A DNA stretch of 64,000 nt, taken from the NCBI RefSeq assembly GCF_054482595.1, contig NZ_CM137008.1. One strand, written 5' to 3'. How positions within the stretch are numbered: position 1 is the first letter of the stretch; the number at the start of each line of letters is the position of its first letter. The notes under the pieces were generated by a model. It saw only the letters and a program-made list of their open reading frames with translations. It ran no database searches and was not told the origin of the DNA. This document shows, piece after piece, positions 4,715 through 63,295 of the stretch. The translations under genes and the position numbers were made by a program.

Positions 4715-5173
4715 GGGGGAAGGGGGAGATTATGGAACTTTGCTCCCTGTAAGGACTAATTATTTTTGCATATTATTTCATCGGCTGTGATGATTTTTCG
4801 TTAATATCCATTATGTTAAGAAGTTCGGGATGAGTGTGAACTCATTGGATTTTTTATCCGTCTTGATCTGCCGAAGGATCAGACTATACATTGTCGAGAT
4901 CGCAATGATGATATGAGTTGTTCCTCCTGCGACGGCTCTAATCAAAAAAGAGCAGGAGTGCTTTTCCATCTATTGCGATGATGGCTTTATTATCTGAAGG
5001 ATGACAGTCACATTTAAAAAATATTTAATCTATAGATCACAATGTAGGGTCATGGAATATATGTATACAACTATTTTCTTCTTCACTTTTAATTATCGTG
5101 TTCATTATAAAACCAAGTTAAAAAAACTCCTGGAGAGTGACTTATTAATATATTTTTAAATAAAATTAAGTTA

Positions 5174-5695
5174 TTATTCATCGATGCATTTTATAGAATC
5201 ATCAATGGCCATAATAGTACTATTAACTCTCCACTTTATATTTTTATCATCACTACAAATATTAACTGAATTTATATCAATGATTTTTTTATTCTTATCT
5301 TTTGTTTTATTTACTGTTTCAATGCAATCAGCGGCAAGTTGGAGTGGATTTAGATTTTTCAGATATGGTCTTATGATCTTTCCCTTACTTAATAAATAGC
5401 ATGTATAGGATTCGGAAAGTCCAGCATCTATTTTGTACCTCATTATATTAGATAAGGATGTGAGAAATTCCTTGTTATCATTCGCAGCCATATATGCCAG
5501 TCCGAGTTCAGCCTCTGCGGCCTTACAGGCAAAATAGCTAAGTGAACACGCTTTTCGTCCCTCTTTAGTACTGGCTGATATTAGTGCCCATAATATTGCT
5601 TTGTCTGCCAAATCTAACTCTCTCTGAAATTGTCTTGCAGTAACTGCACTCGCAGAAATAGAGAAAAAAAATACAATTGTTAATAACTTTGCCAT
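5174..5695 (-). CDS. putative secreted (periplasmic) immunity protein for the downstream-most orphan Rhs toxin
   Basis: The 173-aa ORF starts 5 nt after the orphan toxin stop (5701-5703). Its N-terminus MAKLLTIVFFFSISASA/VTA looks like a Sec signal peptide with an AxA site. It is AT-rich like the adjacent toxin tail. I recognise no catalytic motif. Confidence 0.6.
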   Translation of the reverse strand: MAKLLTIVFFFSISASAVTARQFQRELDLADKAILWALISASTKEGRKACSLSYFACKAAEAELGLAYMAANDNKEFLTSLSNIMRYKIDAGLSESYTCYLLSKGKIIRPYLKNLNPLQLAADCIETVNKTKDKNKKIIDINSVNICSDDKNIKWRVNSTIMAIDDSIKCIDE

Positions 5696-5700
5696 ATTTT

Positions 5701-6594
5701 TTAGTCCGTAACTGTTAATGTGCTATCTGGCTCTGAAAATATTAACTCATTTAATTTTTGCATGTCATTAGATGAACCAGTTATACAACCCTCGGAACAG
5801 AATCGAGGTCCTAAAGACGGACCGAAAGCGTTTAAACAACTATGTGTTAAAAATCCATCACGATTATATGTTTCTGTATTTGCTGACGGTACTAAACGTA
5901 TACCATTAGGTTTTCTATTGGTTGCTCCAGGACCATTAACATTCCAGCTCCATACCCCTTGAGGTATTGGACCTCTATTTTGTAAGTGTGTACAACCAGG
6001 ATTATTTTTACATTGCATATTATTACCATTATTACCAGAGGCGACAGGAATAGTAAGCACATCATAAGAGTTATCATCATTTTGCGTATCTGAAACGCAT
6101 GAAAGCATACTTAAAGTTATGCTGTATAAACAGGTCGCTAATCCCAACGGGTCAATATCAGTTATCGGATTCAACGGATACTGATAAAAATTCCATCCCC
6201 CTTTCAGCCCAATCGGATCCTGAGTGATATATCGCCCCTGCAGCGGGTCATAATAGCGGTGGCGGTTGTAATACAGGCCGGACTCCTCATCATACTGCTG
6301 CCCCGGCAGGCGGATAAGCTGCTGCAGCTGATGCGGGTTCTCTTCATTCAGCAGGTTGCCCCACTCATCGTATTCTGCGCACCATTCTGTAGCACCTTCC
6401 GTGCTGATAAGCGCCAGCGGCAGGCCGCGATGGTCGCAGTGGTACAGGTGGATTTTTCGCGCCGGCGTGTACACCGGGTCCATCTGGTTTTGCATCTGCG
6501 CCACCGTCAGGCCGCACGATGCCAGCCAGCGGCGGCTTTCCTCACTCACCCGGTCAGCCAGGATTTCACTTTCCAGCCGGTCGAGCATCTGCAC
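5701..6594 (-). CDS. orphan Rhs C-terminal fragment: about 150 aa of Rhs core, DPLGL, then a 145-aa toxin tail with an L,D-transpeptidase-fold (Tlde1/DUF2778-like) signature
   Basis: Residues (M)[23 protein letters not shown]...[27 protein letters not shown] repeat the rhsA core 3' end. DPLGL lies at 6139-6153. The tail (5704-6138) contains GPIPQGVW and FLTHSC-x13-SEGCI. There is no ATG with a Shine-Dalgarno at the 5' end; the frame opens just after a TGA and the first starts are GTG 6594 and ATG 6588. It occupies the position of K-12 yibJ. Confidence 0.75.
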
Positions 6595-6620
6595 CGTGCC
6601 GGCGGGAATCCCCCACTGTG
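6154..6620 (-). repeat. third copy of the rhsA core 3' segment (about 0.45 kb)
   Basis: It is near-identical at nucleotide level to 10319-10790 and 8448-8915. For example, ggatcctgagtgatata.cgcccctgcagcgggtcataatagcggtggcggttgtaatacaggcc is present in all three. Confidence 0.9.
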
Positions 6621-6635
6621 CATAGGCAACTCACG

Positions 6636-7478
6636 CTATGAACGCTTCAGCTTATCAATAGCGGAAGTTATAATTTCATTGTCATCAAACTTGTACAACA
6701 TAGTATCTAAAACAGGAAGTAGCGTTTTATCACCTAATTCACCCGCAGCTTCAATGATATCATCATAAACAGTATTTTTTTTTAACTCATCGCATAAAAC
6801 AGATAAAACCCTTTTATCTTTTCTGTAGGAAAGTCAGATTATTGCTTCAATACGGACTTCCTCATTTTTATCCTGAAGCATCTCCACAAAATAATCCCTA
6901 ATATCACTATTATCATATTTATTGATATTTATTGCAAATGCGGCCCAGTTTCTGACATCTCCATTTGGATCTTTTAACAGATTAATCAATAGTGGAATTG
7001 TTGCTTTATCATTGATAACAGAAATAGCAAATGCTGTAGCACGTCTGACATTAGTCGATTTATCAAAAGCAGTAATTTGAGATTGTTCTACTATTTTAGG
7101 TGAATAATTTGGGTTTTTCTTGCATCGCTGAGCCGTTGACTCGATTGCCGTAGCTCGAACGCAAGCGCTCTTATCATTCAATGCCATATTGTTCAAAATA
7201 TTAAAAACATTATCTTCGCATTTTTTGCAAATTTTTATTTGCCCGAGTATAAATGCTCCGATATCTCTACGGATATAATTTTTATCAGAGCAGAACTCAA
7301 TTGCCAATCTAACAGCGTCTTGCCCACCTCTTAACTGTAATACTCTGGCAGATGAAATCCTTTTCAAGGAATTGTGATCATCAAGTAAGCGAAATAATTC
7401 ATCATCATTTAGTTTCTTACATTGATTATATAAACCATACTCTTTACTTGCCTTTCTTTTCTGGTATGTATTTGACAT
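6636..7478 (-). pseudogene. yibA: HEAT-repeat protein YibA (K-12 RhsA-associated immunity-type gene) interrupted by an in-frame TGA
   Basis: MSNTYQKRKASKEYGLYNQCKKLNDDELFRLLDDHNSLKR... matches my memory of K-12 YibA (280 aa). The frame reads ...GAA GCA ATA ATC TGA CTT TCC TAC AGA AAA GAT, with TGA at 6834-6836. It continues in the same frame to TAG at 6636-6638, encoding ...LSYRKDKRVLSVLCDELKKNTVYDDIIEAAGELGDKTLLPVLDTMLYKFDDNEIITSAIDKLKRS. The total is 281 codons, the K-12 length. Confidence 0.85.
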
Positions 7479-7498
7479 TGCAGGAACCTCCACAAAGG

Positions 7499-7540
7499 CT
7501 ATCTTTTTTTATCGTTTGACTGTCTGGAGTCCTCCACCTA
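7499..7540 (-). other. relic of the 3' end of a K-12-type rhsA toxin tail, still 20 nt upstream of yibA
   Basis: The reverse strand reads TAG GTG GAG GAC TCC AGA CAG TCA AAC GAT AAA AAA AGA TAG, encoding ...SRQSNDKKR*. I recall this as the C-terminus of K-12 RhsA. The 20-nt spacer to the yibA ATG matches the K-12 arrangement as I remember it. Confidence 0.6.
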
Positions 7541-7582
7541 CTCTGCCATCAGCGCACACGATGTTTGATTATCCTTACATAC

Positions 7583-7966
7583 TTATTTTCCGTGGCCAAA
7601 ATTCAGAATTCTCCCATCATTTTTGCCTATTTCTATAATAAAAACCCCACCAGCAATTTGGTCTGAGTGAATGGTACCTTCAACAACCCAACTTGTTGTT
7701 AACTCAGTGATTTCGTATGGTTTTTCTTCTTCTGCGGCATCCTGTCCATAACGATTCTTAACATATATCTCAGCTAATTCCAATGCTATAGCTTTATTTT
7801 TAACCAAATTTCTAACGGTATATTTACCTTCACTTTCATACTTGCGCATTATTTTAATATTATTATTACACTGCGCCCATGTGTTGTATGTAAAAACAAA
7901 CAAAGATACAATGACACATTTCCTAAACAATATTTTTTTACATATTACCATGAACTCTGCAGACAT
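7583..7966 (-). CDS. YbbC/YhhH-type (NTF2-fold) Rhs immunity protein with probable signal peptide
   Basis: The 127-aa ORF contains ...[42 protein letters not shown]...[22 protein letters not shown]. This closely resembles K-12 YbbC/YhhH, the genes immediately 3' of rhsD and rhsB. The hydrophobic N-terminus is [24 protein letters not shown]. It overlaps the upstream toxin ORF by 29 nt, so the true start is uncertain (7966 or 7951). Confidence 0.75.
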
Positions 7967-9407
7967 TAGGTAATCCTTTTCCGTTTGTTATTTCCTTCCC
8001 GTGGTTATCTATTGCTTTAAAATTACCACTGGGCGTACCTAAATAAAATGACTTGATATTGTTATCTTTACTTTTAACTATTTTCTCATCTTTACCTGAA
8101 AATATTTCGTCCCAATATTCTCCATGACTATCTGCACCATGAGTATGATAAGCTGATACTTTCTCAGTACCATTAGGGCAAGGGCTATTGAATGGATATG
8201 ATCCTTTTCTTTCTCCTCGGTTAGGTGCTGTTGAGAAATATCTGCCACTATTATCCTTACATATTAAACCAGCGAACTCTTTATCTTCGCAAATAGATTG
8301 GCTATTTATTTTATTTAAGGCGTCATATGCGGTGCTATCTATAGAATCAAATTTATCTGGACCTATCATAGCGGATAGTGTGCCGCAAAGACCATTAGTA
8401 CATGCCCCCGATTTTGCATCCTCCCACATAGATAAACCCAGGGGGTCGATGTCTGATATCGGATTCAATTGATATCCATACAGGTTCCATCCCCCCTTCA
8501 GCCCAATCGGATCCTGAGTGATATACCTCCCCTGCAGCGGGTCATAATAGCGGTGGCGGTTGTAATACAGGCCGGACTCCTCATCATACTGCTGACCCGG
8601 CAGGCGGATGAGCTGCTGCAGCTGGTGCGGGTTCTCTTCATTCAGCAGGTTGCCCCATTCATCGTATTCTGCGCACCATTCTGTAGCCCCTTCCGTGCTG
8701 ATAAGCGCCAGCGGCAGGCCGCGATGGTCGCAGTGGTACAGGTGGATTTTTCGCGCCGGCGTGTACACCGGGTCCATCTGGTTTTGCATCTGCTCCACCG
8801 TCAGGCCGCACGATGCCAGCCAGCGGCGGCTTTCCTCACTCACCCGGTCAGCCAGGATTTCACTTTCCAGCCGGTCGAGCATCTGCACCAGCACCGGCGG
8901 GAACACCACACTGCCACCGTCTTCGCCGCCGGACTGCTGAAGGGCATCCGCCAGGCTGCGGCGCTGCGTTTTCGCCAGCTCACCGGTGGCAGTTTCGACC
9001 CTGATGAGTGGCGTGAAGCTCCCCGGCTGATAAATCGTCTGGATGCGGCTCCTGTCGTTCTGTATCGTGGTCAGCCGGTCGCCGTCCCAGCCGTACCAGG
9101 TCACTTGCGGTTTCCGTGACAGCGACATCCAGCCCGTCAGGTCCCGTTCACGCCGCCACACCCGTTTTGCCACCCTGCGGCCCAGCGGGTCGTAAAGATA
9201 GCGACTTTCGACCAGCGGCTCTGCATATTGTGTCCGCGTGTAGTGCACCAGCCGGTGCTGACTGTCGTAATGGTACCGGTGGGTGCGCTCATCATCCGTG
9301 CGGATAACCCCTTCCGGGATGAGGTCGGTTTTCTCCGTCAGCCTGCCGTGACGGTCATACCGGTAAAGATAGTGCGCGTCACGGGCGATACGGTTATCCG
9401 GCCACAT
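7938..9407 (-). CDS. orphan Rhs C-terminal fragment: about 325 aa of Rhs core, DPLGL, then a 164-aa RhsD/RhsB-type tail (DUF4329-like)
   Basis: [29 protein letters not shown]... duplicates the rhsA core. DPLGL lies at 8433-8447. The tail [17 protein letters not shown]...[15 protein letters not shown]...[23 protein letters not shown] resembles the K-12 RhsD C-terminus as I recall it. The first ATG is an internal core Met with no Shine-Dalgarno, so the fragment is probably silent unless recombined. Confidence 0.8.
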
Positions 9408-9497
9408 GCTGAGGGCGCTGTCCGGGTGCAGCTCCGGGTCGGGCAGGCGGTTACCTGCCGGGTCTGTGGCATACGGGATATCAATGCCCAGGTTACA
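8448..9497 (-). repeat. second copy of the rhsA core 3' segment (about 1.0 kb)
   Basis: It aligns with 10319-11367 with only scattered substitutions. Protein-level differences include RHGRL/RYGRL, EGVIRT/EGGIRT, ELAKTQ/ELARTQ and ATEWC/ATAWC. Similarity decays at [10 protein letters not shown] versus [10 protein letters not shown]. Confidence 0.9.
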
Positions 9498-9524
9498 TAT
9501 AATAATAAGAGCAATTAACTTAAT

Positions 9525-9851
9525 TTATTTGTTTATAATGCGCTTACTTAATACAAACCATTGAATATACCCTCCTGACAGAAAATAAAGCCATATTATT
9601 ATCGCCATAATATACTTACTATCAATCCTTACGCCAATAATGTCTGATACAGTCCCTATAAATATTAGAGCAATAAAGAATACTATGCCTGTTGGAAAAC
9701 ATATTACCATCATTCCATAAGACATGAGACTAATTAACTCGCTCACATCACGAGTGGAGTCTAATAGTGAAAGTCTATGCATGGAAAAGAATAGTATTAA
9801 AAGCGATAAAGCCAGCCATATAGCTCTGAATAAAAAAATAATATATTTCAT
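9525..9851 (-). CDS. small polytopic membrane protein, presumed cognate immunity (RhsI) for the rhsA C-terminal toxin
   Basis: The 108-aa ORF has three hydrophobic segments (IIFLFRAIWLALSLLILFF, MSYGMMVICFPTGIVFFIALIFIG, IMAIIIWLYFLSGGYIQWFVL). Its ATG (9849-9851) shares one nt with the rhsA TAA (9851-9853), reading TAATG. It is AT-rich. Confidence 0.7.
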   Translation of the reverse strand: MKYIIFLFRAIWLALSLLILFFSMHRLSLLDSTRDVSELISLMSYGMMVICFPTGIVFFIALIFIGTVSDIIGVRIDSKYIMAIIIWLYFLSGGYIQWFVLSKRIINK

Positions 9852-12800
9852 TACATCACTCCGGTGAATACAAATCTAATAAAACGTCCAATGTTATTTC
9901 CGGAGCACTTCATCTTACATGTTTCTAAAGAATCATTAGACCAGTCTTGGCAGTTTTTAAATAGCCCTAAATTTATAGGTGTGAATATATCAGGCAATAC
10001 AGAATAACGCGGCCTTACCTCTTTAAACTTCCCTTTTAAACAGTTCTCCACACAACTATTATCGGTTTCAACGAGGTCACAACGGCCAGCAGCTTCTTTT
10101 GTATCATTACTTGCTTTACCTGGCCCCCATAGACCATCTCCTTTTGATTCTCCCCGTTGGTCTTGGCCACCACAAGTATAGTCCCCTTTACCATCTGGGA
10201 CACAAAGATATTGATGATAGAACGGATTCCCCCATATATCTGGACCGCTTCTTTCACCAGTTCCGCCCATTGAATGCAGTGGCTTAATGCATTTTAGTGT
10301 TTCTAATCCTAATGGATCTATATTTGAGATCGGATTCAACGGATACTGATAAAAATTCCATCCCCCCTTCAGCCCAATCGGATCCTGAGTGATATACCGC
10401 CCCTGCAGCGGGTCATAATAGCGGTGGCGGTTGTAATACAGGCCGGACTCCTCATCATACTGCTGCCCCGGCAGCCGGATAAGCTGCTGCAGCTGATGCG
10501 GGTTCTCTTCATTCAGCAGGTTGCCCCATTCATCATATTCTGCGCACCACGCTGTTGCCCCTTCCGTGCTGATGAGCGCCAGCGGCAGGCCGCGATGGTC
10601 GCAGTGGTACAGGTGGATTTTTCGCGCCGGCGTGTACACCGGGTCCATCTGGTTTTGCATCTGCTCCACGGTCAGGCCGCACGATGCCAGCCAGCGGCGG
10701 CTTTCCTCACTCACCCGGTCAGCCAGGATTTCACTTTCCAGCCGGTCGAGCATCTGCACCAGCACCGGCGGGAACACCACACTGCCACCGTCTTCGCCGC
10801 CGGACTGCTGAAGCGCATCCGCCAGGCTGCGGCGCTGCGTTCTGGCCAGTTCACCGGTGGCAGTTTCAACTCTGATGAGTGGTGTGAAGCTCCCCGGCTG
10901 ATAAATCGTCTGGATGCGGCTCCTGTCGTTCTGTATCGTGGTCAGCCGGTCGCCGTCCCAGCCGTACCAGGTCACTTGCGGTTTCCGTGACAGCGACATC
11001 CAGCCCGTCAGGTCCCGTTCACGTCGCCATACCCGTTTTGCCACCCTGCGGCCCAGCGGGTCGTAAAGATAGCGACTTTCGACCAGCGGCTCTGCATATT
11101 GTGTCCGCGTGTAGTGCACCAGCCGGTGCTGACTGTCGTAATGGTACCGGTGGGTGCGCTCATCATCCGTACGGATACCCCCTTCCGGGATGAGGTCGGT
11201 TTTCTCCGTCAGCCTGCCGTAACGGTCATACCGGTAAAGATAGTGCGCGTCACGGGCGATACGGTTATCCGGCCACATGCTGAGGGTGCTGTCCGGGTGC
11301 AGCTCCGGGTCGGGCAGGCGGTTGCCCGCCGGGTCCGTGGCATACGGGATGCGGATATCCAGATTCGCTGCGGTGGTGTGAACGCCGGTCAGCCTGCCGG
11401 TGGTGCTGTAGCTGTAACTCCGGGTCTGGCGCGGGCTGCTGATGCGGATGAGTTCGCCGTTGTCGTTCCAGGTGTAATCGCGGTCATACTGCAGGCTGTT
11501 CAGGTGCTGACGCTGTAACTGCCCGGCAGGGGTGTAAGCGGTGGTGAGTTCATAACGACCGAAGCTGCGCAGCGTTTCCCGGTGCAGGCGGTCGCGGGTG
11601 AAATCCACCAGCGGTGTGTCGCCGAGCTTCATGCCTGCCAGCCAGCCGCTGCCGTAGGTCAGCCATTCCACGGCGGGCAGGCTGTCCGGTATACAGCGGT
11701 TCGCCAGTCCCTGCGCGTTGTACGCATGTCTGGTCTCATGCTGCCAGAGCAGTGCTTCCGTCTGCGGGTGATGCACCGTCTGGCGCTCACCGGTCAGGCG
11801 GCCTTTCTCATCATACCTGTAATGCACCGCTACCCGGTGCCCTTCGCTGATATGGCTGATGTCTGTCAGCCAGCCACGTTCGTCATACCGCCACCGCTCT
11901 GCGGTTTCACCCTTCACGGTGCGGTGCGTGAGGCGGTCTGCTTCGTCATAGTGCCAGTGGGTGACCAGACCCTCATCCTCGCTGCGGATAAGTTTGCCGG
12001 TCAGGTCGTGGTGATAACGCTGTGTGCGGCCGTCAAAGCCGGTTTCCTGTATCAGCCGGTCAAGTACATCGTAACGGAAGGTGGTGTGGCTGCCGTTTTC
12101 ACTGGTCAGGCGGATGACCCGTCCGGCAGCATCGTATTCCATACTGCGCGTCAGCCCGCCCTGCGTGGTACGGACGGCCTTTCCCCACGCATCGTACTGT
12201 GTCCCGTTTCTGCTGCCGTCCGGGGCAATGACGGCGGTCAGGTCACCGGCGATGTTGTATTCATACCGCGTTTCATGGCCCTGCGTGTCTTTCACGGCAA
12301 TTAACTGTCCACGGCTGTCGTATGCGCGGTACTGGCTCAGCCCTTCCTCGCGGTGCACCGCCGTCATCTGCCCGAAGCGGTCATGGTCATAACGGGTCTG
12401 GTAGCCGGAACAGTCGGTGAAGCTCAGCAACTGGCCGTAACGGCTCCACGTCATGGTTTTCCGGCTGCCGGTGGCATCGTCCGTTGCGCAGGGGAGGTCA
12501 CTGTGTGGATTATCATAACGGTAGCGGGTGATATCGCCGTCAGGGGCGGTTTCCTGAATCAGACGGCCGGATTCATCATATTCCCGGCGCAATTCCAGCC
12601 CGTCAGGCCCGGTGGCTGACGTTAACTGGTTGTGGTGGTTATAGTAAAACGCCGATGCCCTGCCATCCGGCGTGGTTATGCGCGTGATGAGGCCCGTCAC
12701 CACATCCGGGCTGTACTCTGTTGTCCTGCCTGCGGCATCCGTCTGTGCCCTGAGCCTGCCCACGGCGTCAAACTGACTCTGCGTGACGCTGCCGTCCGCG

Positions 12801-14035
12801 TGTTCCTTTTTCACCACCCGCTTCAGCCCGGCTTCGCCCTGCGTGTGCAGCACTTCACGGCGGTCCAGGCTGTCGGTGATGGTGATGCGGTCTTTCTCAT
12901 ACTGATACGTGTAGCTTAAGCCTGCCGGGTTTAGCTGTTCTGTCACCCGCCCGTCGCTGTCGTAACGGTAACGGATTTCCGGCCGGCCCGTGTGACGGTG
13001 CGCCACCATCCGGCCCCGGTATTTATCATCGTAAGTAAAGCTGCGCACCTGTGTATTGCTGCGGTCATACACTGCCGCCAGTTCGCCGCGCGGCGTCCAG
13101 CCATAGCGCACCAGCGGCGCGGCAGGTAAATTCTCCGGGTATTCCGGGTCGTGCGTCAGCCACACGGCAGACAGACGGATGCCGTTGTCCCGGCCATATT
13201 CGGTGTAACCCGGCAGGGTATCAGGAAAAGCGGACGGTTCCGTCCCGCCGGAAATGGCCTGCTGCCGGGCTTCTTCTGCCTGCTGCGCCTGCGTGGTCAG
13301 TACCAGCCGGAAGTGACGCCCGGCACCATCCGTCACGCCGGTGATTTCGCCGCTGAATTCACCGGCGGCTTCGCGGTGGAACGTCTGTGTGCGCCCGAAG
13401 CGGTCCACCAGCCCGGTCAGTACCCGGTACGGCGGCAGCGGCGCAGGCAGCACCTCATCCGCTTCCGGCACCCGCTCACACCACCACCACGGCCCCTGCG
13501 GACTGTTTGTCGCCAGATAACGATGCGGACTTAAGCGGAGTTCTTCCGGCAGCGCCTGCCAGAGTGCGGCCAGCCGGTGACCTTCATCCAGTTTCGCCAC
13601 GCCGCCGCGCACCAGCCACAGTGACTCGCTGCGGCTGTAACCGTCCTCACCGGGAAACAGGTGCTCAAAATACAGGCTTCTGCCGCCGTTATCACTGAGT
13701 ATCAGTGTGTTATCGCGCAGCTGTAAGCGGATATCCGCAGGCATTTTCCAGCCGGGGCCGAGGCTCCCCACCGGCGCGGGCGTTTTTGTCCGGTAACTGC
13801 TGTAGGTGCGGGAGAGGATGAACGGCAGCGGGGCGGGCAGGGCGATGTCGGTTTCACCGGGAAGGACCTTTGCACCGAGCAGGGGATTGACCGGATGGCC
13901 GGACGTCACTCCGCCGGGGCACCCCGAACAGGCCACACCGGTTGGGGCACCGATGCGCACCCCGGCTGAACCCTGAACAATGCTACCGCCATACTGCGTC
14001 ATGTCGCCCTGACGCGCCGCCGGTTTTCCGCTCAT
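9851..14035 (-). CDS. rhsA: Rhs family polymorphic toxin (PAAR-like N-terminus, YD-repeat shell, DPLGL, variable 150-aa Cys-rich C-terminal domain)
   Basis: The ORF is 1394 aa. The N-terminus is [29 protein letters not shown] (literal PAAR). Many YD-type repeats (xYxYDxxGRL) follow, then the core end ...[40 protein letters not shown] (DPLGL at 10304-10318) and the tail at 9854-10303. It is called rhsA from its position next to yibF and yibA, as in K-12. Confidence 0.93.
10319..11367 (-). repeat. rhsA core 3' segment, the master copy of the three direct repeats
   Basis: See 8448-9497 and 6154-6620. All three copies are in the same (minus-strand) orientation. Confidence 0.9.
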
Positions 14036-14263
14036 CTGCTCATCCTTGTTTTATCGAGTTATTTGTCTGCTTCCAGGCAAAACCCTACAGATTTATAAGA
14101 AAGCCTTAAGTGAGATATCCATCAGATAGAAACAATTAGGAAAATATTTATATCACCATGATAAATATGTGATTTATTTGGAAGTAACAAACCATCAACA
14201 TTTTCTGCCCTTTTTCCCATCACCAGGCCATACTGATATTTTTCCTCGCACAAAGGACTCGGC

Positions 14264-25094: not shown

Positions 25095-25222
25095 ACCGGT
25101 GGATGTCGGTGCGGCTGGCCTACGCTCTCGCACCGACTTGTATGCCTGATAAGACGTGTTAAGCGTCGCATCAGGCAATGTGCTCCTTACGTTGGATGCG
25201 GCGCGAGTGCCTTATCCAACCT
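25095..25222. repeat. REP elements at the left border of the sugar island
   Basis: gcctgataagacgtgttaagcgtcgcatcaggc and ggatgcggcgcgagtgccttatccaacctacgg are present. The second abuts the GH127 stop codon. Confidence 0.75.
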
Positions 25223-27191
25223 ACGGATGGCAATGCTTTTCCTCATTCACCCAGATCCGCATTTCGCCTTCACCCCGGTTGGCCCAGCTAAACCACGGGA
25301 TAAAGGTCAGAGTTTGCGTCTGGCGTTTGGCTGGCGCGCTGTCGTAATGCCACAGCGGTTGCTGCTCTGGATTGCTCTGTTCATACCGGTAACCCGGTGC
25401 CTGGATTAAGATCTTATGGCTAAACAATCCATTGCCTTCAAATGTCGTAAATGGCGCATCGGTGGGCAGCCACAGATTATGCAGTGACTCGCCGTTGTCG
25501 GCCTGTTCCAGGCAATACACCAGCGGGCCGCGCTGAATCGCCACTTTTCCGGCGACGTGACGCACCAGCGGGTTACCGTAAACGCGACGTACTGGCATCG
25601 GCAAAGTCAGATTCAGCGTGTCGCCCTCCTGCCATTCGCGGGTAATGTGCAAATACCCTTTACGAATATCCTGCTCGACCTCTTCCCCATTCAATATGAT
25701 CTGCGGCTGTGTGCACCAGTCCGGCAGACGTAAAGCAAGTGTATGACGCACCGGCTGGGGCGATTCGACCGCAATCGTCACCTGTTCCTGCCACGGATAG
25801 TTCCCGCTAACCCGCAGGCGCAGCGTGCCATTTTCTACCGGCACTTCCATGCTGTTTCCTGCGTATATGTTGATATACAACGCATCTTCTCGCGGCGTGT
25901 AGAGATAATGACCAATCGAGGTCAGCACGCGGGCGATATTTGGCGGACAACAAGCGCAGCCAAACCAACGCTGGCGGATCGGTTTAACGTGATCGTAGAT
26001 ATGGTTGAATTTCAGCGATTTTGGATGTACTTCCAGCGGATTCACATAGAAGAAATGTTTGCCATCCAGCGCCATGCCGCCGAGCACGGTGTTGTACAGT
26101 GCGCGCTCCATCACATCGGCATATTGACTGTCGCCTTCCATTTCCAGCATTCGTCGGGCAAACATCATCAGGCCGATGGAGGCGCAACTTTCAGCGTATA
26201 CCGTGTCATTCGGCAGATCGTAATCGCTGCTGAACGCTTCACCGCTGCTCTGTGAGCCAATGCCGCCGGTAATATATAACTGACGCTGGGCCATATTGTT
26301 CCACAGCCGCAGGCAGTTCTGACGCTTGCTGTCATCGTGACTTAAACGCGCGAGATGCGCGACGCCGGTCATCAGATAGACAAAACGTACCGCGTGACCG
26401 ATGGCGGTTTGCTGTTGCGCAAGGGGCAAATGTGCCTGGCTGTAGGCTTTGTCTTTCACCATCCACGCCGGGCCGTAGGTGTGCCAGTGCGATGTCTGCC
26501 CGCGCTTTTCATATTCCTGGTCGTAATAGTGCGGTTGCGCACCACGTTGTTCGACAAAATAGTTCGTCAGTGCCAGGTAGCGCGGCTCTTCGGTCACTTC
26601 ATACAGACGCATCAGTGCCAGTTCAATTTCCGGGTGACCAGGGTAACCGTGTAACTTACTTTCATCTGGACCAAACACGCTGTCGATATGATCGGCCAGA
26701 CGGCAAACCACTTCCAGCAAGCGCCGCTTGCCCGTGGCCTGGAAGAAGGCGACTCCAGCTTCAATCAGATGACCTGCGCAGTAAAGTTCATGACACTCCG
26801 CCAGATTGCTCCAGCGTTCTTCGGGTGCTTTTACCGTAAAGTAAGTATTGAGATAGCCGTCTTCGCATTGGGCGGAGGCGATCAGTTCGATTACCTCGTC
26901 GGCGGTTTTTTCCAGTTCGGCGTCTGGCTTCTGGCACAGCGACCAGGCTACCGCTTCCAGCCATTTGGCGACATCGCTGTCCTGAAACACCATCCCGTAA
27001 AATTCACCCTCCTGAAGTCCGGCGGCAATGCGAAAGTTTTCAATCGCATGGCTGGGTTCCGCTTCTGGTATACGATCGTTCAAGGCATCCCACTGATAAG
27101 GAATCACCACGTCGCGGACCAGTTGTTGGTACTGACCGAGAAACGGATCGCTGACCGTCAGTTTATGCAGATCGACTTCCGAAATGTTCAT
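25221..27191 (-). CDS. glycoside hydrolase family 127 (DUF1680; beta-L-arabinofuranosidase-type)
   Basis: The CDS is 656 aa from the ATG at 27189-27191, with AAGGAG 6 nt upstream overlapping the transporter stop. It contains AESCAS and FGCACCPPN. I recall these as the Glu/Cys Zn-site and catalytic-Cys motifs of GH127 (HypBA1). The 672-aa track ORF is over-extended. Confidence 0.8.
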   Translation of the reverse strand: MNISEVDLHKLTVSDPFLGQYQQLVRDVVIPYQWDALNDRIPEAEPSHAIENFRIAAGLQEGEFYGMVFQDSDVAKWLEAVAWSLCQKPDAELEKTADEVIELIASAQCEDGYLNTYFTVKAPEERWSNLAECHELYCAGHLIEAGVAFFQATGKRRLLEVVCRLADHIDSVFGPDESKLHGYPGHPEIELALMRLYEVTEEPRYLALTNYFVEQRGAQPHYYDQEYEKRGQTSHWHTYGPAWMVKDKAYSQAHLPLAQQQTAIGHAVRFVYLMTGVAHLARLSHDDSKRQNCLRLWNNMAQRQLYITGGIGSQSSGEAFSSDYDLPNDTVYAESCASIGLMMFARRMLEMEGDSQYADVMERALYNTVLGGMALDGKHFFYVNPLEVHPKSLKFNHIYDHVKPIRQRWFGCACCPPNIARVLTSIGHYLYTPREDALYINIYAGNSMEVPVENGTLRLRVSGNYPWQEQVTIAVESPQPVRHTLALRLPDWCTQPQIILNGEEVEQDIRKGYLHITREWQEGDTLNLTLPMPVRRVYGNPLVRHVAGKVAIQRGPLVYCLEQADNGESLHNLWLPTDAPFTTFEGNGLFSHKILIQAPGYRYEQSNPEQQPLWHYDSAPAKRQTQTLTFIPWFSWANRGEGEMRIWVNEEKHCHP

Positions 27192-27201
27192 CTTGTGCTC
27201 C

Positions 27202-28602
27202 TTAAGGCTGTACATGACGCTGACGCAGGTCGGTAGCAATGCGTGACATCATAGGGTTATTGAGTTTGCAAAAGCGGATCGCCCCTGCCAGCAGCAGGTG
27301 GAATAGCGCAGGCAGTAATGTTTCCATCGCCGTGATCCCGCCAAGCGAACTGGTGGTCTGGTTTTCCACGCCTGGCTGGTAGGCGACAAAAATAAACAGC
27401 AGGCTGATGATCCCGGCGCTGGAGGCCCAGGCCAGCTTGATGAAAAACAGATTGAAGGCGAAGTTCATGCCGGAAGAACGTACGCGGGTTTTCCACTCGC
27501 CGTAGTCATCGGCAAAGGCCATCAATGAGAAGTGCAGTGGCAATGTGAAGCCAAGAATCACGCCATTACCGAGGATCACCGCCAGCCACAGCGTTTGATA
27601 AGCCGGGCCGGAGGGCAGGAACCACATCAACACCGCCAGTGCAGCGAGGAGCAGGTTGGTGTAGTAATAAATTTTGACGGTATCGAAACGCCGCGTTAAC
27701 GGGCTGACAATCACCGAGCCGATAATGGAGGCGAAGGTGACCATGGTGAAGAACAGCGACGTGTAGCCCGTGCTGCCTTGTAAGACGTAGGTAATGAAGT
27801 ACATATACCCACCGCCGCGAATATTAAAGACGTTAATCAGCAGGAAAGACATGACCAGCATCAGCAGCAGTTGGTCGTTGTTCCGCAGCCCGGCAAGATG
27901 TTCGCGCAGGGTAAATTTCCCCATTGTGGAGAGTGGCACCCGTTCACGAACCCAGAAAAAACAGCACAGGAACATCACCACGGCAATGGCGCACAGCACG
28001 CCGACGCCCAATTGATAGCCGCGCGCGGCATTACCCTGACCGAAGAGATCTACCATCCACGGTAAGCCTACCGAAACCAGAAATCCCGCTACGCCACAGA
28101 GAACGAATCGCCAGGACTGGCAGGAGATCACTTCATTGTGGCGGGTGGTCATGGTGTTGATCAGCGCGCAGTACGGTACGTTGATGGCGGTATAACCGAC
28201 TGAAAGGAGCAGGTAAGTACCGAACGCCCAGGCGATTTTTACTCCCATGCTGGCATCTGGCACGGTGAACGTCAGGATGCCGATAATGCCGATGGGAATG
28301 GCAATCCATAGCTGCCACGGACGAAAGCGCCCCCAGCGACTTTGCGTCCGGTCGGCAATGACGCCCATCACCGGGTCGGAGATGGCATCAAACACGCGCA
28401 GTGCAATAAACAGCGTGCCAACCAGCGCCGGAGTTAATCCAAAAACGTCGGTGTAGAAAAAGGTGAGAAAGTTCATGATCAGGCAAGTTATTACGGTGCC
28501 GCCTGCGTCACCCAGGCCGTAGCCTATTTTTTCCCGTACCGATAACGCATCGTCAATTTTACCTTTAGCGATATCAGCGGTAGTAATCGGTGTAGAGGTC
28601 AT
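27202..28602 (-). CDS. glycoside-pentoside-hexuronide (GPH) family sugar:cation symporter
   Basis: The 466-aa polytopic ORF carries an N-terminal [13 protein letters not shown] motif typical of the MelB/YicJ/UidB family. It forms a tight operon with the GH127 gene. Confidence 0.85.
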
Positions 28603-28740
28603 AGATATTCCTCGTGAATAGGGAGCAATTTTTAGTTTTATTGAAATGACCTGATTAATTCTGCCGTGAACGGGAATATCAACAAGGCGAGAAAAGAGTA
28701 AAAAAAGGTGACGATTCCGACCTGAATTTAAAAGTGTGAA

Positions 28741-29643
28741 ATGGATCAGGTGAAATTAATGTTTTTTATTAATAATCAAAAGGTAATGTGTTTTGTCATT
28801 AATGAAGAAGCGGGAAATTACATATCAATGCTCGAATTATCCATGACGTTACCGATTAAAGTGCAAAATGGTGGATTATTTATTTCCCGTGGCGTAGGGA
28901 GGCATCCTGCAAGGCGGCTGGAGTCATGGGAAATTATCTTTGTCGAAAAAGGTCGATTAACGATTCAGGAAGAAGAACGGATATTTCTGGTCGATGCGGG
29001 AGAGAGTTTATTACTCTGGCCGAACCGACAACATGTTGGGGTGGAGGATTTTCCCGCCGATCTCAAATTTTACTGGCTGCATTTTGAGGTTAAAGCGCCG
29101 GACAACGACCCTCGCTGGCTTACTCATCTTAGCGTGCCGCAACAAACGAAGGTTGTCGATCCGCAGGCGCTGGTGGCCCTGTTTCGCCAGTTCTTAAGCG
29201 AACAGGAAAAGCATCAACGCACTCCGGCGCTGGAGTTTATTGTGCTGCTCATTTTGCAGCAGCTCACCCGTGACGCGCGTCTTGATGAACAGGCCGATGG
29301 CGCAGGCACCACCCTTGCCTGGAAAGCGCAGAAACTGATCCGCACGCAATATCATCGCCCGCTTTCTACGGTGCTTCTGGCCCGCGAGCTGTACTGCAAT
29401 GCCGATTATCTTGGGCGCGTCTACCGGCGGGTGTTTCATCTGACGTTAACAGAAGCAATCCATCGCCAGCGGGTGCGCGAAGCCGAAAAGCTGTTAATTA
29501 GCGAAGCGCGATCGCTCACGGAAGTGGCGGCGTTGTGCGGGTTTAATGACGTTGGCTATTTCCGGCAGATTTTTCGCAAACACACCGGTTTAACGCCAGC
29601 AGCGTGGAAGCGGCGTTACAGCAAGGAACATATCAATTCGTAG
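28741..29643 (+). CDS. AraC/XylS-family transcriptional regulator (cupin sensor plus C-terminal double HTH)
   Basis: The C-terminus reads ...[81 protein letters not shown]. It is divergent from the transporter/GH127 operon. The start is uncertain; in-frame ATGs at 28828 and 28843 are alternatives. Confidence 0.8.
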
Positions 29644-29785
29644 TGCCGTGTCGATTTCGCTTTCGACATCACGTCTGAAACAGGTGGGGGAGAAAAATCT
29701 CCTGAAACCACTGCGTGAAACCGCGCAGGCTATTTCTAATGAACTGGGATTTACTGTCAGGGATGACCTTGGCGCGATCACATAA
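29642..29785 (+). pseudogene. yiaJ: 47-codon relic of an IclR-family regulator 3' end (presumed yiaJ remnant)
   Basis: The frame gives [47 protein letters not shown]. This is an IclR effector-domain C-terminal pattern with no upstream remainder. It begins at the AraC stop codon and lies immediately upstream of ysaA on the same strand, which is where yiaJ sits in K-12. Confidence 0.65.
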
Positions 29786-29886
29786 CGCTTTGGACAAGTG
29801 CCAAAACTTTAACATTTCCTTCGTTGGATCAAAGCAGTAGGGACGTGCTCTCTGGCACTCTGCTGTTTTAGTGCAAAGGAGTGATC

Positions 29887-59110: not shown

Positions 59111-59403
59111 TGCATTTTAAAGAATAAAAATGAAAATATTTTATCTTATTATTTGTGTGGTGAATGTTTTTGTTTTGTTTAATTGATATTTTATATTTAT
59201 TTATTCCTAAAAATAAACGATGGCTTTTTATGTGAAAATGTAACGCAATGATTTTTTTTAAGATTTAAAGTTGGATGCGCTATTAATATATTATTCGTAT
59301 AATTTTATTATTCGTATTTCATTGTATAATCCTTCCTTCAAAGTTGTCGATTTTGATACATCAAGATTTTCTTTTTAATGTAATTTTTTAAATGGAGTTT
59401 TTC

Positions 59404-59928
59404 ATGAAAAAGGTCGTTTTTGCCTTAACCGCACTGGCGTTAACTTCTGGCACTGTATTCGCAGCAGAGTCTGGTGACGGCACGGTTAAATTTACAGGCG
59501 AGATCGTGGATTCACCTTGCGTACTGTCCGTTGACTCTCAGAACCAGGAAGTTGTGTTGGGTCAGGTACAAAAATCTGTATTTGCTGCGGTTGGTGACAA
59601 ATCCCCGGCAAAACCTTTCGAAATCAAACTGGAAGATTGCGATACCACCACGATGAAAAAAGCCAATGTGAGCTTTAGCGGTGTTGGTGATGCAGATCAA
59701 TCTGATCTGATTTCTGTTAGTACTGAAGCCGGTGCGGCGAAAGGTGTTGGTATCGGTATTTATGATAACAGCAACACCCTGGTCGCTCTTAACGGTGGTA
59801 AAGCAAGTGTTGATCTGAGTAAAGGCCAGACGGTTCTCTACTTTACCGCCAACTACGTTTCAACTCTGGCAACGGTAACGACCGGTTACGGCAATGCGCA
59901 GGTCGATTTCAACCTGTCTTACGAGTAA
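59404..59928 (+). CDS. lpfA: long polar fimbriae major subunit
   Basis: MKKVVFALTALALTSGTVFA/AESGDGTVKFTGEIVDSPCV...GYGNAQVDFNLSYE has a type-1-like pilin layout and is very similar to E. coli LpfA as I recall. GGAG lies 6 nt before the ATG at 59404. Confidence 0.88.
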   Translation: MKKVVFALTALALTSGTVFAAESGDGTVKFTGEIVDSPCVLSVDSQNQEVVLGQVQKSVFAAVGDKSPAKPFEIKLEDCDTTTMKKANVSFSGVGDADQSDLISVSTEAGAAKGVGIGIYDNSNTLVALNGGKASVDLSKGQTVLYFTANYVSTLATVTTGYGNAQVDFNLSYE

Positions 59929-59980
59929 TCGTCTGTTTTACCCATGGCGGCGTAATTGCCGCCATTAGTCGTCAAAATTC

Positions 59981-60679
59981 ATGGATCGAATGATGAAAAG
60001 TAAATTTGTTGCGTTGGCTCTGTCTCTGTTCCTCTCCCAGTCAGTTCTGGCGGGGGGCGTTGGGCTTAGTGCTACCCGTGTGATTTATGATGGCAGTAAG
60101 AAAGAAGCCTCGCTGACCGTACAGAATAAAAGTAAGACGGAAGAGTTTCTGATCCAGTCCTGGGTGGATGATGCCGCGGGCAGCAAAAAAACACCGTTTA
60201 TAATTACCCCGCCGTTGTTCAGGCTCGATCCTGGAAAAAACAATATATTGCGTATTGTAAATACTACCCCTGGCCTGCCGCAGGATCGCGAATCGGTCTA
60301 CTGGGTTAATGTGAAAGCCATTCCGTCTAAAAGTGACGACAGCGAAAACAAAAATGTATTACAGATTGCTGTTCGCACCCGAATCAAACTTTTTTATCGC
60401 CCGGCAGGTTTAAAGGGTGATGTAAAAACCGCGCCAAATGAACTGCGATTTACGCGTAACGGTAATCAGCTCCGCGTTGATAATCCGACAGTTTTTAATA
60501 TTACCTTTAATCAATTTTTTGCGAATGACAAAGAAATTGAAAAAGCAGGCATGGTACCCGCTAAAGGGGCATTAAATATCACATTACCCGCCGGGGTAGG
60601 TAGCGTTTCTAAAATTAAATATAACGCCATCAATGACTTTGGATCGTCAGCGGAAATGATGACTAAAAATGTTGATTGA
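59981..60679 (+). CDS. lpfB: fimbrial periplasmic chaperone (PapD-like)
   Basis: The ORF is 232 aa and contains ...GGVGLSATRVIYDGSKKEASLTVQNKS...FLIQSWVDD...YWVNVKAIPS (chaperone signature). The start may be at 59990 or 59993. Confidence 0.88.
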   Translation: MDRMMKSKFVALALSLFLSQSVLAGGVGLSATRVIYDGSKKEASLTVQNKSKTEEFLIQSWVDDAAGSKKTPFIITPPLFRLDPGKNNILRIVNTTPGLPQDRESVYWVNVKAIPSKSDDSENKNVLQIAVRTRIKLFYRPAGLKGDVKTAPNELRFTRNGNQLRVDNPTVFNITFNQFFANDKEIEKAGMVPAKGALNITLPAGVGSVSKIKYNAINDFGSSAEMMTKNVD

Positions 60680-60707
60680 TTAATATCTTTTCAGGAGAAA
60701 TAGCTCA

Positions 60708-63281
60708 ATGTCACGGAAGACCGTTTCACGTACTTTTTCTTCCTTTTCTATCTCTGTGGTGGCGGTTGCTGTTGCCAGCACGTTTTCTGCACATGCCGGA
60801 AAGTTTAACCCCAAATTCCTGGAGGACGTTCAGGGTGTGGGCCAGCATGTCGATTTAACGATGTTCGAAAAAGGCCAAGAACAGCAGTTACCCGGCATCT
60901 ATCGTGTCTCTGTTTACGTCAATGAACAGAGAATGGAAACCCGCACACTGGAATTTAAAGAGGCCACAGAAGCACAGCGCAAAGCGATGGGGGAATCCCT
61001 TGTGCCTTGCCTTAGCCGGACGCAACTGGCAGAGATGGGCGTGCGCGTTGAAAGCTTTCCGGCCCTCAATCTGGTGCCTGCCGAAGCCTGCGTACCGTTT
61101 GACGAAATCATTCCCCTGGCCTCAAGCCATTTCGACTTCAGTGAACAAAAGCTGGTATTAAGTTTCCCTCAGGCGGCGATGCACCAGGTGGCGCGTGGCA
61201 CGGTGCCGGAATCTTTATGGGACGAAGGTATCCCTGCGTTGCTGCTGGATTACAGTTTTAGCGGGAGCAACAGTGAATATGACTCGACGGGGTCTTCCAG
61301 CAGTTATGTCGATGATAATGGCACTGTTCATCATGATGATGGTAAAGATACGCTAAAGAGCGACAGCTACTACCTCAACTTACGCAGCGGGCTGAACCTT
61401 GGCGCTTGGCGGTTACGGAATTACAGTACCTGGAGCCATTCCGGTGGCAAAGCGCAGTGGGATAATATCGGTACGTCTTTGAGTAGGGCCATCATCCCTT
61501 TCAAAGCGCAATTAACAATGGGGGATACGGCGACCGCGGGGGATATTTTTGACAGCGTTCAGATGCGTGGCGCGATGTTAGCCTCCGATGAAGAGATGCT
61601 GCCCGACAGCCAGCGAGGCTTTGCACCCATCGTTCGTGGGATCGCCAAAAGTAACGCCGAAGTCAGTGTTGAACAAAACGGCTACGTTATTTATCGCACC
61701 TATGTGCAGCCTGGTGCCTTTGAAATAAACGATCTTTACCCCACTGCAAACAGCGGTGATCTCACGGTCATTATTAAAGAAGCGGATGGCAGTGAACAAC
61801 GCTTTATTCAGCCATTCTCATCGGTGCCAATTTTCCAGCGTGAAGGCCATCTCAAATATAGCTTTGCCGCAGGTGAATATCAGGCCGGGAATTATGACAG
61901 CGGCTCGCCGCGTTTCGGGCAGCTTGATCTGATTTATGGTTTACCGTGGGGGACGACCGCCTACGGCGGCGCATTAATCTCCAATAATTACAATGCGTTT
62001 GCATTAGGGATAGGTAAAAACTTTGGTTATATCGGGGCGATTTCCATCGATGTGACACAGGCGAAAAGCGAGCTGAATAACGATCGCGATAGCCAGGGAC
62101 AATCTTATCGCTTCTTATATTCCAAGAGCTTCGAAAGCGGCACCGATTTCCGCCTCGCGGGCTATCGATACTCTACCAGCGGTTTCTATACCTTCCAGGA
62201 AGCCACCGATGTTCGCAATGATGCCGACAGCGACTATAACCGTTATCACAAGCGCAGCGAAATACAGGGTAACCTGACGCAGCAATTAGGGTCATATGGC
62301 TCTGTTTATTTAAATTTAACGCAGCAGGATTACTGGAACGACGCAGGTAAACAGAACACGGTATCGGCGGGTTACAACGGACGTATTGGCAAGGTCAGTT
62401 ACAGTATTGCATATAGCTGGAATAAAAGCCCTGAATGGGATGAAAGCGATCGCTTGTGGTCTTTCAATATTTCCGTTCCACTAGGCCGGGCCTGGAGTAA
62501 CTATCGCGTCACGACCGACCAGGATGGTCGTACCAATCAACAGGTTGGGGTCAGCGGAACGCTGCTTGAGGATCGCAACCTGAGCTACAGTGTCCAGGAA
62601 GGCTACGCCAGCAACGGTGTGGGTAACAGCGGTAATGCTAACGTTGGCTATCAGGGTGGGTCCGGTAATGTCAACGTAGGCTATAGCTACGGGAAAGATT
62701 ACCGGCAGCTCAACTACAGCGTTCGCGGCGGCGTGATAGTTCATAGCGAAGGCGTGACGCTTTCCCAACCGCTAGGCGAAACCATGACGCTCATCTCCGT
62801 ACCCGGTGCGCGCAATGCCCGCGTGGTGAATAACGGCGGCGTTCAGGTTGACTGGATGGGTAACGCGATCGTGCCTTACGCCATGCCGTATCGTGAAAAC
62901 GAAATCTCACTGCGTAGCGATTCGTTGGGTGACGATGTTGACGTTGAAAATGCGTTCCAGAAAGTGGTGCCAACGCGTGGAGCGATTGTCAGAGCGCGTT
63001 TTGATACCCGCGTTGGTTACCGCGTATTAATGACGCTGCTTCGTTCCGCGGGCAGCCCGGTGCCCTTTGGAGCAACGGCAACGCTAATCACCGATAAACA
63101 AAACGAGATGAGCAGTATCGTTGGTGAAGAAGGACAGCTCTATATTAGCGGAATGCCAGAGGAAGGACGGGTATTGATTAAATGGGGTAATGACGCGTCG
63201 CAGCAATGCGTGGCGCCTTATAAATTATCCCTGGAATTAAAACAGGGCGGAATTATTCCTGTTTCGGCCAATTGCCAGTAA
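60708..63281 (+). CDS. lpfC: fimbrial outer-membrane usher, uninterrupted
   Basis: A single 857-aa ORF with AGGAG upstream and a signal peptide. Usher hallmarks are present (...FNPKFLED...; C-terminal ...QQCVAPYKLS...ANCQ). Confidence 0.9.
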   Translation: MSRKTVSRTFSSFSISVVAVAVASTFSAHAGKFNPKFLEDVQGVGQHVDLTMFEKGQEQQLPGIYRVSVYVNEQRMETRTLEFKEATEAQRKAMGESLVPCLSRTQLAEMGVRVESFPALNLVPAEACVPFDEIIPLASSHFDFSEQKLVLSFPQAAMHQVARGTVPESLWDEGIPALLLDYSFSGSNSEYDSTGSSSSYVDDNGTVHHDDGKDTLKSDSYYLNLRSGLNLGAWRLRNYSTWSHSGGKAQWDNIGTSLSRAIIPFKAQLTMGDTATAGDIFDSVQMRGAMLASDEEMLPDSQRGFAPIVRGIAKSNAEVSVEQNGYVIYRTYVQPGAFEINDLYPTANSGDLTVIIKEADGSEQRFIQPFSSVPIFQREGHLKYSFAAGEYQAGNYDSGSPRFGQLDLIYGLPWGTTAYGGALISNNYNAFALGIGKNFGYIGAISIDVTQAKSELNNDRDSQGQSYRFLYSKSFESGTDFRLAGYRYSTSGFYTFQEATDVRNDADSDYNRYHKRSEIQGNLTQQLGSYGSVYLNLTQQDYWNDAGKQNTVSAGYNGRIGKVSYSIAYSWNKSPEWDESDRLWSFNISVPLGRAWSNYRVTTDQDGRTNQQVGVSGTLLEDRNLSYSVQEGYASNGVGNSGNANVGYQGGSGNVNVGYSYGKDYRQLNYSVRGGVIVHSEGVTLSQPLGETMTLISVPGARNARVVNNGGVQVDWMGNAIVPYAMPYRENEISLRSDSLGDDVDVENAFQKVVPTRGAIVRARFDTRVGYRVLMTLLRSAGSPVPFGATATLITDKQNEMSSIVGEEGQLYISGMPEEGRVLIKWGNDASQQCVAPYKLSLELKQGGIIPVSANCQ

Positions 63282-63295
63282 GCAAGGAGAGCGAA

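Follow-up and report, generated by a model that had tools for sequence, protein, structure and literature searches.

An Rhs element with a probable record of displaced toxin tips and immunity genes at the rhsA site of Escherichia coli

Introduction

How does a single Rhs locus come to hold one complete toxin gene and, below it, the tips and immunity genes of several others? The question is raised by positions 4715-14035 of the window, by which we mean the whole 64,000-nucleotide stretch of DNA analyzed here (NCBI RefSeq assembly GCF_054482595.1, contig NZ_CM137008.1). This interval is flanked by yibI-yibH, with mtlA beyond, and by yibF-selA-selB, the site of the rhsA element in Escherichia coli K-12. 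A sequence-only reading had listed eight items along its minus strand, and all eight are present in that order between yibF and yibH. Very probably, the locus is an Rhs element in which a full-length gene bearing the C-terminal tip (CT) of RhsC lies above displaced older tips and immunity genes.

The mechanism of displacement was proposed by Jackson et al. in 2009 (PMC2935791), and the window resembles their model in several ways: below an intact rhs gene comes a series of detached tips, each still joined to part of a core; the tips have evolved independently of the cores; and the tip that displaces a shared one at a given locus varies from strain to strain. There are also two differences. The core fragments in the window are 4-6% diverged from the main core, not identical to it, and at one step the old tip was lost but for 32 nucleotides (nt). 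We ask here where each layer comes from, how the layers may have been added, and what the tips and immunity proteins are likely to be.

Results

One complete gene and two orphans

The main gene encodes an Rhs protein by every profile that recognizes its core. NCBIfam NF041261 (RHS_core) covers residues 1-1244 with 2627 bits, Pfam RHS_repeat matches in 11 stretches (E = 2.1e-68), TIGR01643 is matched, and DUF6531 is clearly present. The Rhs-associated core TIGR03696 spans residues 1167-1244 and closes with DPLGL at 1240-1244, after which an AT-rich tip of 150 amino acids begins. Downstream and in the same orientation lie two orphans, each a core fragment fused to a distinct tip and followed by its own immunity gene (Table 1). 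Their core fragments are 96.1% (orphan 1, over 1037 nt) and 94.6% (orphan 2, over 482 nt) identical to the main core, matching positions 937-1261 and 1111-1261 of the NF041261 profile, and both frames are intact at 489 and 297 codons. The end of orphan 1 is overlapped by yhhH by 29 nt. The AT-rich look of the cassettes against GC-rich cores, remarked on in the sequence-only reading, is real: GC content is 0.62, 0.61, and 0.58 in the cores, 0.31-0.41 across tips and immunity genes, and 0.52 in the flanking yibH and yibF.

Over the interval, the window is identical to E. coli strain XH990 (window position = XH990 coordinate minus 128000). The presence of three repeat copies at least 94% identical within 8 kb might suggest that the stack is an assembly artefact of repeated rhs cores. 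The core repeats differ at 25-40 positions, so they can be resolved in assembly, and six complete genomes of human, pig, and chicken origin, each assembled independently, share a 5.7-kb interval at 100% identity, which others have at 98-99.9%. Because independent assemblies agree exactly, we reject misassembly, an explanation with a vanishingly small chance of being right.

Table 1. Features of the Rhs element at the rhsA site, in minus-strand order (window positions)
Feature	Position	Strand	Description
Full-length rhs	14035..9851	minus	1394 amino acids; core 14035..10304, tip CT1 10303..9854
ybfB	9851..9525	minus	108 amino acids, hydrophobic, about 3 transmembrane segments; presumed CT1 immunity protein
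Orphan 1	9479..7938	minus	5'-truncated core fragment 9479..8433 (1.05 kb), tip CT2 8432..7941
yhhH	7966..7583	minus	127 amino acids, Imm-NTF2-2 (Pfam E = 2.5e-26), hydrophobic N-terminal segment
RhsA-tip relic	7537..7499	minus	13-codon stop-to-stop frame, VEDSRQSNDKKR followed by a stop; K-12 rhsA homology from 7530
yibA	7478..6636	minus	HEAT-repeat immunity protein of the RhsA tip; pseudogene, TGA at codon 215
Orphan 2	6618..5701	minus	yibJ-type core fragment 6618..6139 (0.48 kb), tip CT3 6138..5704, 145 amino acids
Imm57 gene	5695..5174	minus	173 amino acids, intact; Pfam E = 1.3e-47; signal-peptide-like N-terminus MAKLLTIVFFFSISASAVTA
H-repeat (ISAs1-type) transposase fragment	5011..4779	minus	Distal end of the element; counterpart of K-12 yibU

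Junctions trace the layers to three K-12 loci

Alignment by blastn against three K-12 loci shows where the pieces have their counterparts. Positions 14153..8460 are collinear with K-12 rhsC-ybfB-ybfO(core) at 97.1%, and the joint between ybfB and the core fragment is thus that of the K-12 rhsC locus. The next segment, 9479..7132, follows the K-12 rhsB locus collinearly at 98.7%, from the 3' core and tip through yhhH to yrhC. It overlaps 7530..6166, which matches the end of rhsA, yibA, and the yibJ core (98.2%), while 6349..4500 matches yibS-yibW-yibV-yibU-yibH (92.8%). At the distal end, the transposase fragment also resembles K-12 yhhI and ybfL, matching internal parts of both at about 80% identity.

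At the protein level, CT1 is the K-12 RhsC-CT (150/150 amino acids) with K-12 YbfB (108/108), and CT2 is the K-12 RhsB-CT (163/164) with YhhH (126/127). The annotation of XH990 by the NCBI Prokaryotic Genome Annotation Pipeline (PGAP) likewise calls the main gene rhsC. Given this 99-100% identity, the cassettes that the strain appeared to have gained are those kept at the K-12 rhsC and rhsB loci. The sequence-only reading was right that two extra cassettes stand upstream of yibA and that the K-12 RhsA tip is lost save for 32 nt; the extras are not new toxins, being the RhsC-tip/YbfB and RhsB-tip/YhhH pairs. Its 13-codon toxin relic is there too, and is the end of the K-12 RhsA tip: 32 nt from 7530 onward match the end of K-12 rhsA, with the last nine residues identical to the K-12 RhsA C-terminus.

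The joint from yhhH through the relic into yibA (window 7132-7582) is shared with the K-12 rhsB locus (positions 5784-6234 of the compared locus L003), where the yibA piece is cut to the pseudogene yrhC and followed by the H-repeat gene yhhI. Since the two K-12 matches overlap across it, this joint appears to have formed once and later moved between sites. Because the joint is shared, a stack of the window's type at the rhsA site seems to have been copied in truncated form to give the K-12 rhsB element.

At the rhsA site itself, the window and K-12 agree in chromosomal position, orientation, and core (about 97% identical), and they share yibA, the yibJ-type core fragment, the bottom cassette with its Tlde1-like tip and Imm57, and the H-repeat remnant. 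The architectures nevertheless differ, as the sequence-only reading expected of such an alignment. K-12 has the RhsA tip attached, an intact yibA, and a yibJ-tip/yibG cassette, whereas in the window the RhsC and RhsB cassettes stand on top and the yibJ-tip/yibG layer is missing, the yibJ-type core being joined directly to the Tlde1-like tip. That reading erred in stating that the K-12 site holds only rhsA-yibA-yibJ-yibG; K-12 also has yibS, yibW, yibV (PF15596, that is, Imm57), and yibU. In tblastn comparisons, K-12 yibS/yibW is a stop-ridden, frameshifted copy of orphan 2, and yibV with its downstream sequence is a twice-frameshifted Imm57. The bottom cassette, decayed in K-12 into four pseudogene or fragment calls, is intact in the window.

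Occurrence of the layers among E. coli genomes

Of the 5426 complete E. coli genomes in which we counted the layers, 3696 have the bottom cassette; only 35 of these carry it at 99% identity or more to the window allele, and most have an approximately 94%-identical, decayed allele of the K-12 type. The arrangement from the RhsB tip and yhhH through yibA to Imm57 is found at the site in about 600 genomes (at least 80% of 4715-10400), and the RhsC-tip/ybfB cassette lies directly upstream of RhsB-tip/yhhH in 24 (searched with a synthetic two-cassette query). The yibH-yibF site is empty in roughly a quarter of evenly sampled entries.

Individual strains illustrate the variation. In 1504D004 and NCTC9112, the RhsB tip is the main tip and is followed by yhhH-yibA-orphan 2-Imm57. 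The stack of GF8 at the same site has an added yibJ/yibG layer, and that of ST70 carries a different tip on its main gene and, above yhhH, several other immunity genes. Two enterotoxigenic E. coli strains, F9792 and L7_E1373, have the three-layer stack with the "main" rhs cut to its last 1326 nt (positions 9628-10953 of their loci, L011 and L012); there is no full-length Rhs gene at the locus, so all three of their tips are orphans. Serial addition at the core-proximal end would account for both the invariant order and the nesting of the frequencies.

Decay of yibA

The sequence-only reading called yibA a decaying immunity gene, and strain comparison bears this out. Codon 215 (6836..6834) is TGA in place of the K-12 GGA, with the remaining 66 codons in frame, and PGAP flags the XH990 gene with "internal stop". 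This G215* change is common to the window, XH990, APEC37, Res13, Santai, and 1504D004, the last of which has a second stop at codon 126. Other lesions are a 1-nt deletion at nt 55 (ETEC6335, A16) and a deletion in an A9 tract (NCTC9112, A16). The gene is intact in GF8, ST70, F9792, L7_E1373, and K-12. Altogether, at least three lesions arose independently among strains that lack the RhsA tip, whereas yibA of K-12, which retains the tip, has none.

The toxin tips and their immunity proteins

CT1 and YbfB. The ATG of ybfB overlaps the rhs stop codon (TAATG), and YbfB has three hydrophobic segments. That CT1 is toxic and is neutralized by YbfB is presumed from gene order, this TAATG coupling, and family pairings. 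No Pfam or NCBIfam family matched YbfB, and CT1 gave no match to Pfam, NCBIfam, or PDB sequences (phmmer) even at E = 10; a PDB profile search with the CT1 alignment matched only in the Rhs-core part, a Foldseek search with a structure model of CT1 returned nothing significant, and a literature search on YbfB/RhsC function found nothing relevant. Among 18 homologues of CT1, the most distant at 43% identity, neither H35 nor Q124 ever varies, and C123, in the motif NCQ[DE]W, is at least 90% conserved. H35 and C123 may thus be a catalytic pair, and we tentatively assign CT1 to the NlpC/P60 - LRAT - PPPDE (permuted papain-like) hydrolases.

CT2 and YhhH. The tip of orphan 1 (164 amino acids) belongs to DUF4329/Tox-JAB-2 (PF14220, E = 6.7e-39) and has, as HTH, the H[ST]H motif described for Tox-JAB-2 (PMC3482391). 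Its partner had been described as a YbbC-like immunity protein; such a protein is present, and it is specifically YhhH, a paralogue of YbbC (the PGAP name). The pairing of DUF4329 with Imm-NTF2-2, like that of Tlde1_dom with Imm57, is catalogued by Zhang et al. (PMC3482391).

CT3 and Imm57. The tip of orphan 2 matches Pfam Tlde1_dom (formerly DUF2778; LD-peptidase-like) at 33.8 bits for the tip alone and 31.1 for the whole orphan, against a cut-off of 30.1; it had no match among PDB sequences. Its motif is H-x15-SEGC (in full, THSC-x14-SEGCI), to be compared with H...(S/T)HGC[hydrophobic], the catalytic motif of Tlde1a (PMC9638812): the His and Cys are present, with Glu in place of the second His. 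Strain ST70 has a homologue whose annotation reads tlde1 domain protein, and members of the cluster are named DUF2778 or tlde1 by NCBI. In XH990, RefSeq/PGAP calls only the core fragment of orphan 2, as a partial pseudogene, and leaves CT3 (5704-6138) unannotated though its frame is intact. The cassette resembles the type VI secretion system effector pair Tlde1/Tldi1, of the Tox-LD-peptidase/Imm57 type (PMC9638812; PMC3482391), in that a Tlde1_dom is followed by an Imm57 with an export signal. It differs in that CT3 is fused to an Rhs core fragment and is not a free effector, has the Glu substitution, and scores barely above the cut-off. A peptidoglycan or periplasmic target for CT3 is well supported by family membership, and it fits with a putatively exported Imm57.

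The sequence-only reading proposed that all three toxins are directed at the envelope. This holds for CT3 at the level of its family and is plausible for another tip; for CT2, a Tox-JAB-2 domain, it goes further than the evidence, and a nuclease role has been suggested (PMC3482391).

The exact Imm57 protein of the window was found on 440 contigs. Its gene has a poly-T tract in codons 9-11 (5671..5664) that is in frame as T8 (the window, XH990, APEC37, Res13, NCTC9112, Santai, A16) and frameshifted as T7 (K-12, 1504D004, GF8, F9792, L7_E1373, ETEC6335, and frequently elsewhere). The tract departs from the other haplotype markers: ETEC6335 and A16 differ in it while sharing the yibA deletion at nt 55, and 1504D004 differs from the window while sharing G215*. 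Such a pattern would arise if the tract slips recurrently or if long-read assemblies have homopolymer errors there.

Discussion

How the stack may have formed

In the main gene, an RHS/YD-repeat cocoon ending in PxxxxDPxGL would form the delivery shell for the RhsC tip, with translational coupling to ybfB. Below it are the presumed displaced layers: the RhsB tip with YhhH, the 32-nt RhsA stub with yibA, and the Tlde1-like tip with a periplasmic Imm57. We envisage the process proposed by Jackson et al. (PMC2935791), in which a main core recombines with a core fragment lying downstream of it and so releases a circle bearing core fragment, tip, and immunity gene. Its integration into a resident core by a single crossover would attach the new tip and shunt the old one downstream, where it would be left without a start codon or delivery domain. 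The RhsC layer is an exact fit to this model, its distal joint being the K-12 rhsC-ybfB-ybfO joint. The step from RhsA to RhsB would instead have been a replacement in which the old toxin was deleted and its immunity gene alone retained, because the relic has no core fragment before it and only 32 nt of the old tip are left.

Serial C-terminal displacement, as the sequence-only reading had it, is supported by the junction identities, the nested genome counts, and the different K-12 stack at the same site. The same reading spoke of a dated stack. A relative order can be given, and the events probably followed it; the dating cannot be kept. We compared mismatches per 250-nt bin with K-12 rhsA, rhsB, rhsC, and three other strains and rejected core divergence as a clock, since the mosaic blocks point to gene conversion that blurs any clock.

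Several observations weigh against this interpretation. The cores are mosaic, with mismatches to each paralogue in scattered blocks. The RhsA tip left no core fragment, so a simple single-crossover shunt does not fit that step. The oldest cassette, at the bottom, is intact while the younger yibA is broken, which means that position in the stack does not predict decay. Two-layer genomes could be ancestors of the three-layer stack or its deletion derivatives: the main core of 1504D004, examined as a possible recent deletion derivative, is about 3% different from the window's over its whole length, which is compatible with either direction of change. Finally, the N-terminal PAAR_motif of the main protein reaches only 16.2 bits, under a cut-off of 27, and covers residues 2-20 only.

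The layers might also have come from within. It is possible, if somewhat unlikely, that the stack arose by unequal recombination or gene conversion among the strain's own rhsA, rhsB, and rhsC elements, with no lateral acquisition. The cassettes and junctions are those of the K-12 rhsC and rhsB loci, and the shared yhhH-relic-yibA joint implies that whole segments have moved between sites. In the XH990 genome, the RhsC and RhsB cassettes are each single-copy, and the K-12 rhsB site (nikR-yhhJ) has no Rhs element (XH990 286455-292745; L009 31456-37746). However, single copies are equally expected under lateral entry, and also if a stack like this one, at the rhsA site, was copied to give K-12 its rhsB element. 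The nikR-yhhJ site of XH990 holds an unrelated island, a hicAB toxin-antitoxin pair with a phosphotransferase system (PTS)/aldolase/kinase sugar island and chuA-chuS nearby, and bears no Rhs scar. Jackson et al. (PMC2935791) found little evidence for intragenomic donors. Rearrangement among a strain's own elements is in any case compatible with displacement, as the recombination chemistry is identical.

Are the orphan tips silent?

The sequence-only reading spoke of one expressed toxin. Downstream of the ybfB stop, the frame of orphan 1 stays open but contains no ATG, GTG, or TTG until an internal Met codon at 9407, and that ATG has no Shine-Dalgarno sequence. Orphan 2 likewise has no start signal of its own; its frame follows a TAG and reaches the core homology after 8 codons. 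Promoter-like sites are not enriched across the locus (19 found versus 13.8 +/- 3.3 expected from shuffled sequence), and we rejected candidate promoters or terminators for the orphans, whose counts did not exceed the shuffled expectation. The sequence-only reading would have given way had the orphans proved to be full independent genes; the search for start signals and promoter enrichment found neither. The orphan tips are thus probably translationally silent. That a single toxin of the stack is expressed we infer more guardedly, because internal promoters of rhs cores are documented in Salmonella (PMC7043789).

Those promoters open another reading, in which an internal promoter and start in each core fragment would allow the tips to be made inside the cell, so that the orphans act as self-maintaining modules like toxin-antitoxin pairs. 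In Salmonella, promoters just upstream of PxxxxDPxGL drive both main and orphan tips, and similar promoter sequences are reported in E. coli rhs genes (PMC7043789). The intact orphan frames would suit such a role, as would a 10-of-12 promoter-like site upstream of orphan 1 (9625..9598) and a 9-of-12 site upstream of Imm57 (5768..5739). However, the final 200-300 nt of each of the three cores are free of promoter-like sites on the minus strand, the overall number of such sites does not exceed the shuffled expectation, and the ATG at 9407 in orphan 1 lacks a Shine-Dalgarno sequence. In addition, 1504D004 carries a tip identical to CT3 beside a frameshifted Imm57, which is hard to reconcile with production in the cytoplasm unless the tip is harmless there. 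We consider active orphans unlikely.

Displaced, silent tips may still be recoverable. A close parallel is the Salmonella Typhimurium rhs-main/rhs-CT-orphan locus (PMC3967940; PMC7043789), where an orphan tip that has no start but is accompanied by its own immunity gene comes after a full-length rhs, and where homology to the main core of about 0.5-1 kb at about 95% is sufficient for recombinational activation. Re-attachment was shown there experimentally, over 522 bp at 95% identity (Koskiniemi et al. 2014, PMC3967940). At 1037 nt/96.1% and 482 nt/94.6%, the core repeats of the window are at least as good a recombination substrate, and the 1.0-kb and 0.48-kb repeats may permit RecA-dependent re-attachment of an orphan tip. 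Whereas the Salmonella locus has one orphan, two are present in the window, together with a layer that consists of an immunity gene only, and the window is known from sequence alone. The retained immunity genes, for their part, may protect against neighbors armed with matching tips.

Other features of the window

Elsewhere in the window, positions ~25220-29790 hold an island with a glycoside hydrolase family 127 gene, a major facilitator superfamily transporter, and an AraC regulator, adjoining the remnant of an IclR-family regulator gene. The end of the window (59400-64000) carries a long polar fimbria operon, lpfA1-lpfB-lpfC.

Implications

A bolder scenario can be drawn, in which the stack is a reversible store for toxin switching that combines re-arming with slippage in Imm57, and the RhsC tip and YbfB are a papain-like Cys-His hydrolase toxin and its membrane-protein neutralizer. 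RecA crossovers between the main core and the core fragments would then re-arm the cell with the RhsB or Tlde1-like tip, such derivatives would be among the approximately 600 genomes in which the RhsB tip is the main one, and the bottom immunity gene would be toggled by T8/T7 slippage in its signal-peptide codons. As a whole, we judge this scenario quite improbable.

In kind, the locus is already known: the mechanism was published between 2009 and 2014 (Jackson 2009, Koskiniemi 2014), every tip and immunity protein is in a catalogued family or identical to a K-12 protein, and the stack is annotated in 24 complete RefSeq genomes. What it adds is partly a clearer view of its relatives. The K-12 genes yibS/yibW/yibV/yibU become readable as a decayed Tlde1-like/Imm57 cassette with an intact version here, yibA has been inactivated repeatedly and independently where its cognate toxin tip is gone, and the RhsC tip, an uncharacterized toxin tip, gains a tentative fold assignment. 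Above all, with junctions that can be traced to three K-12 loci, the stack offers a clean natural example of how polymorphic-toxin loci would amass displaced tips and orphan immunity genes.

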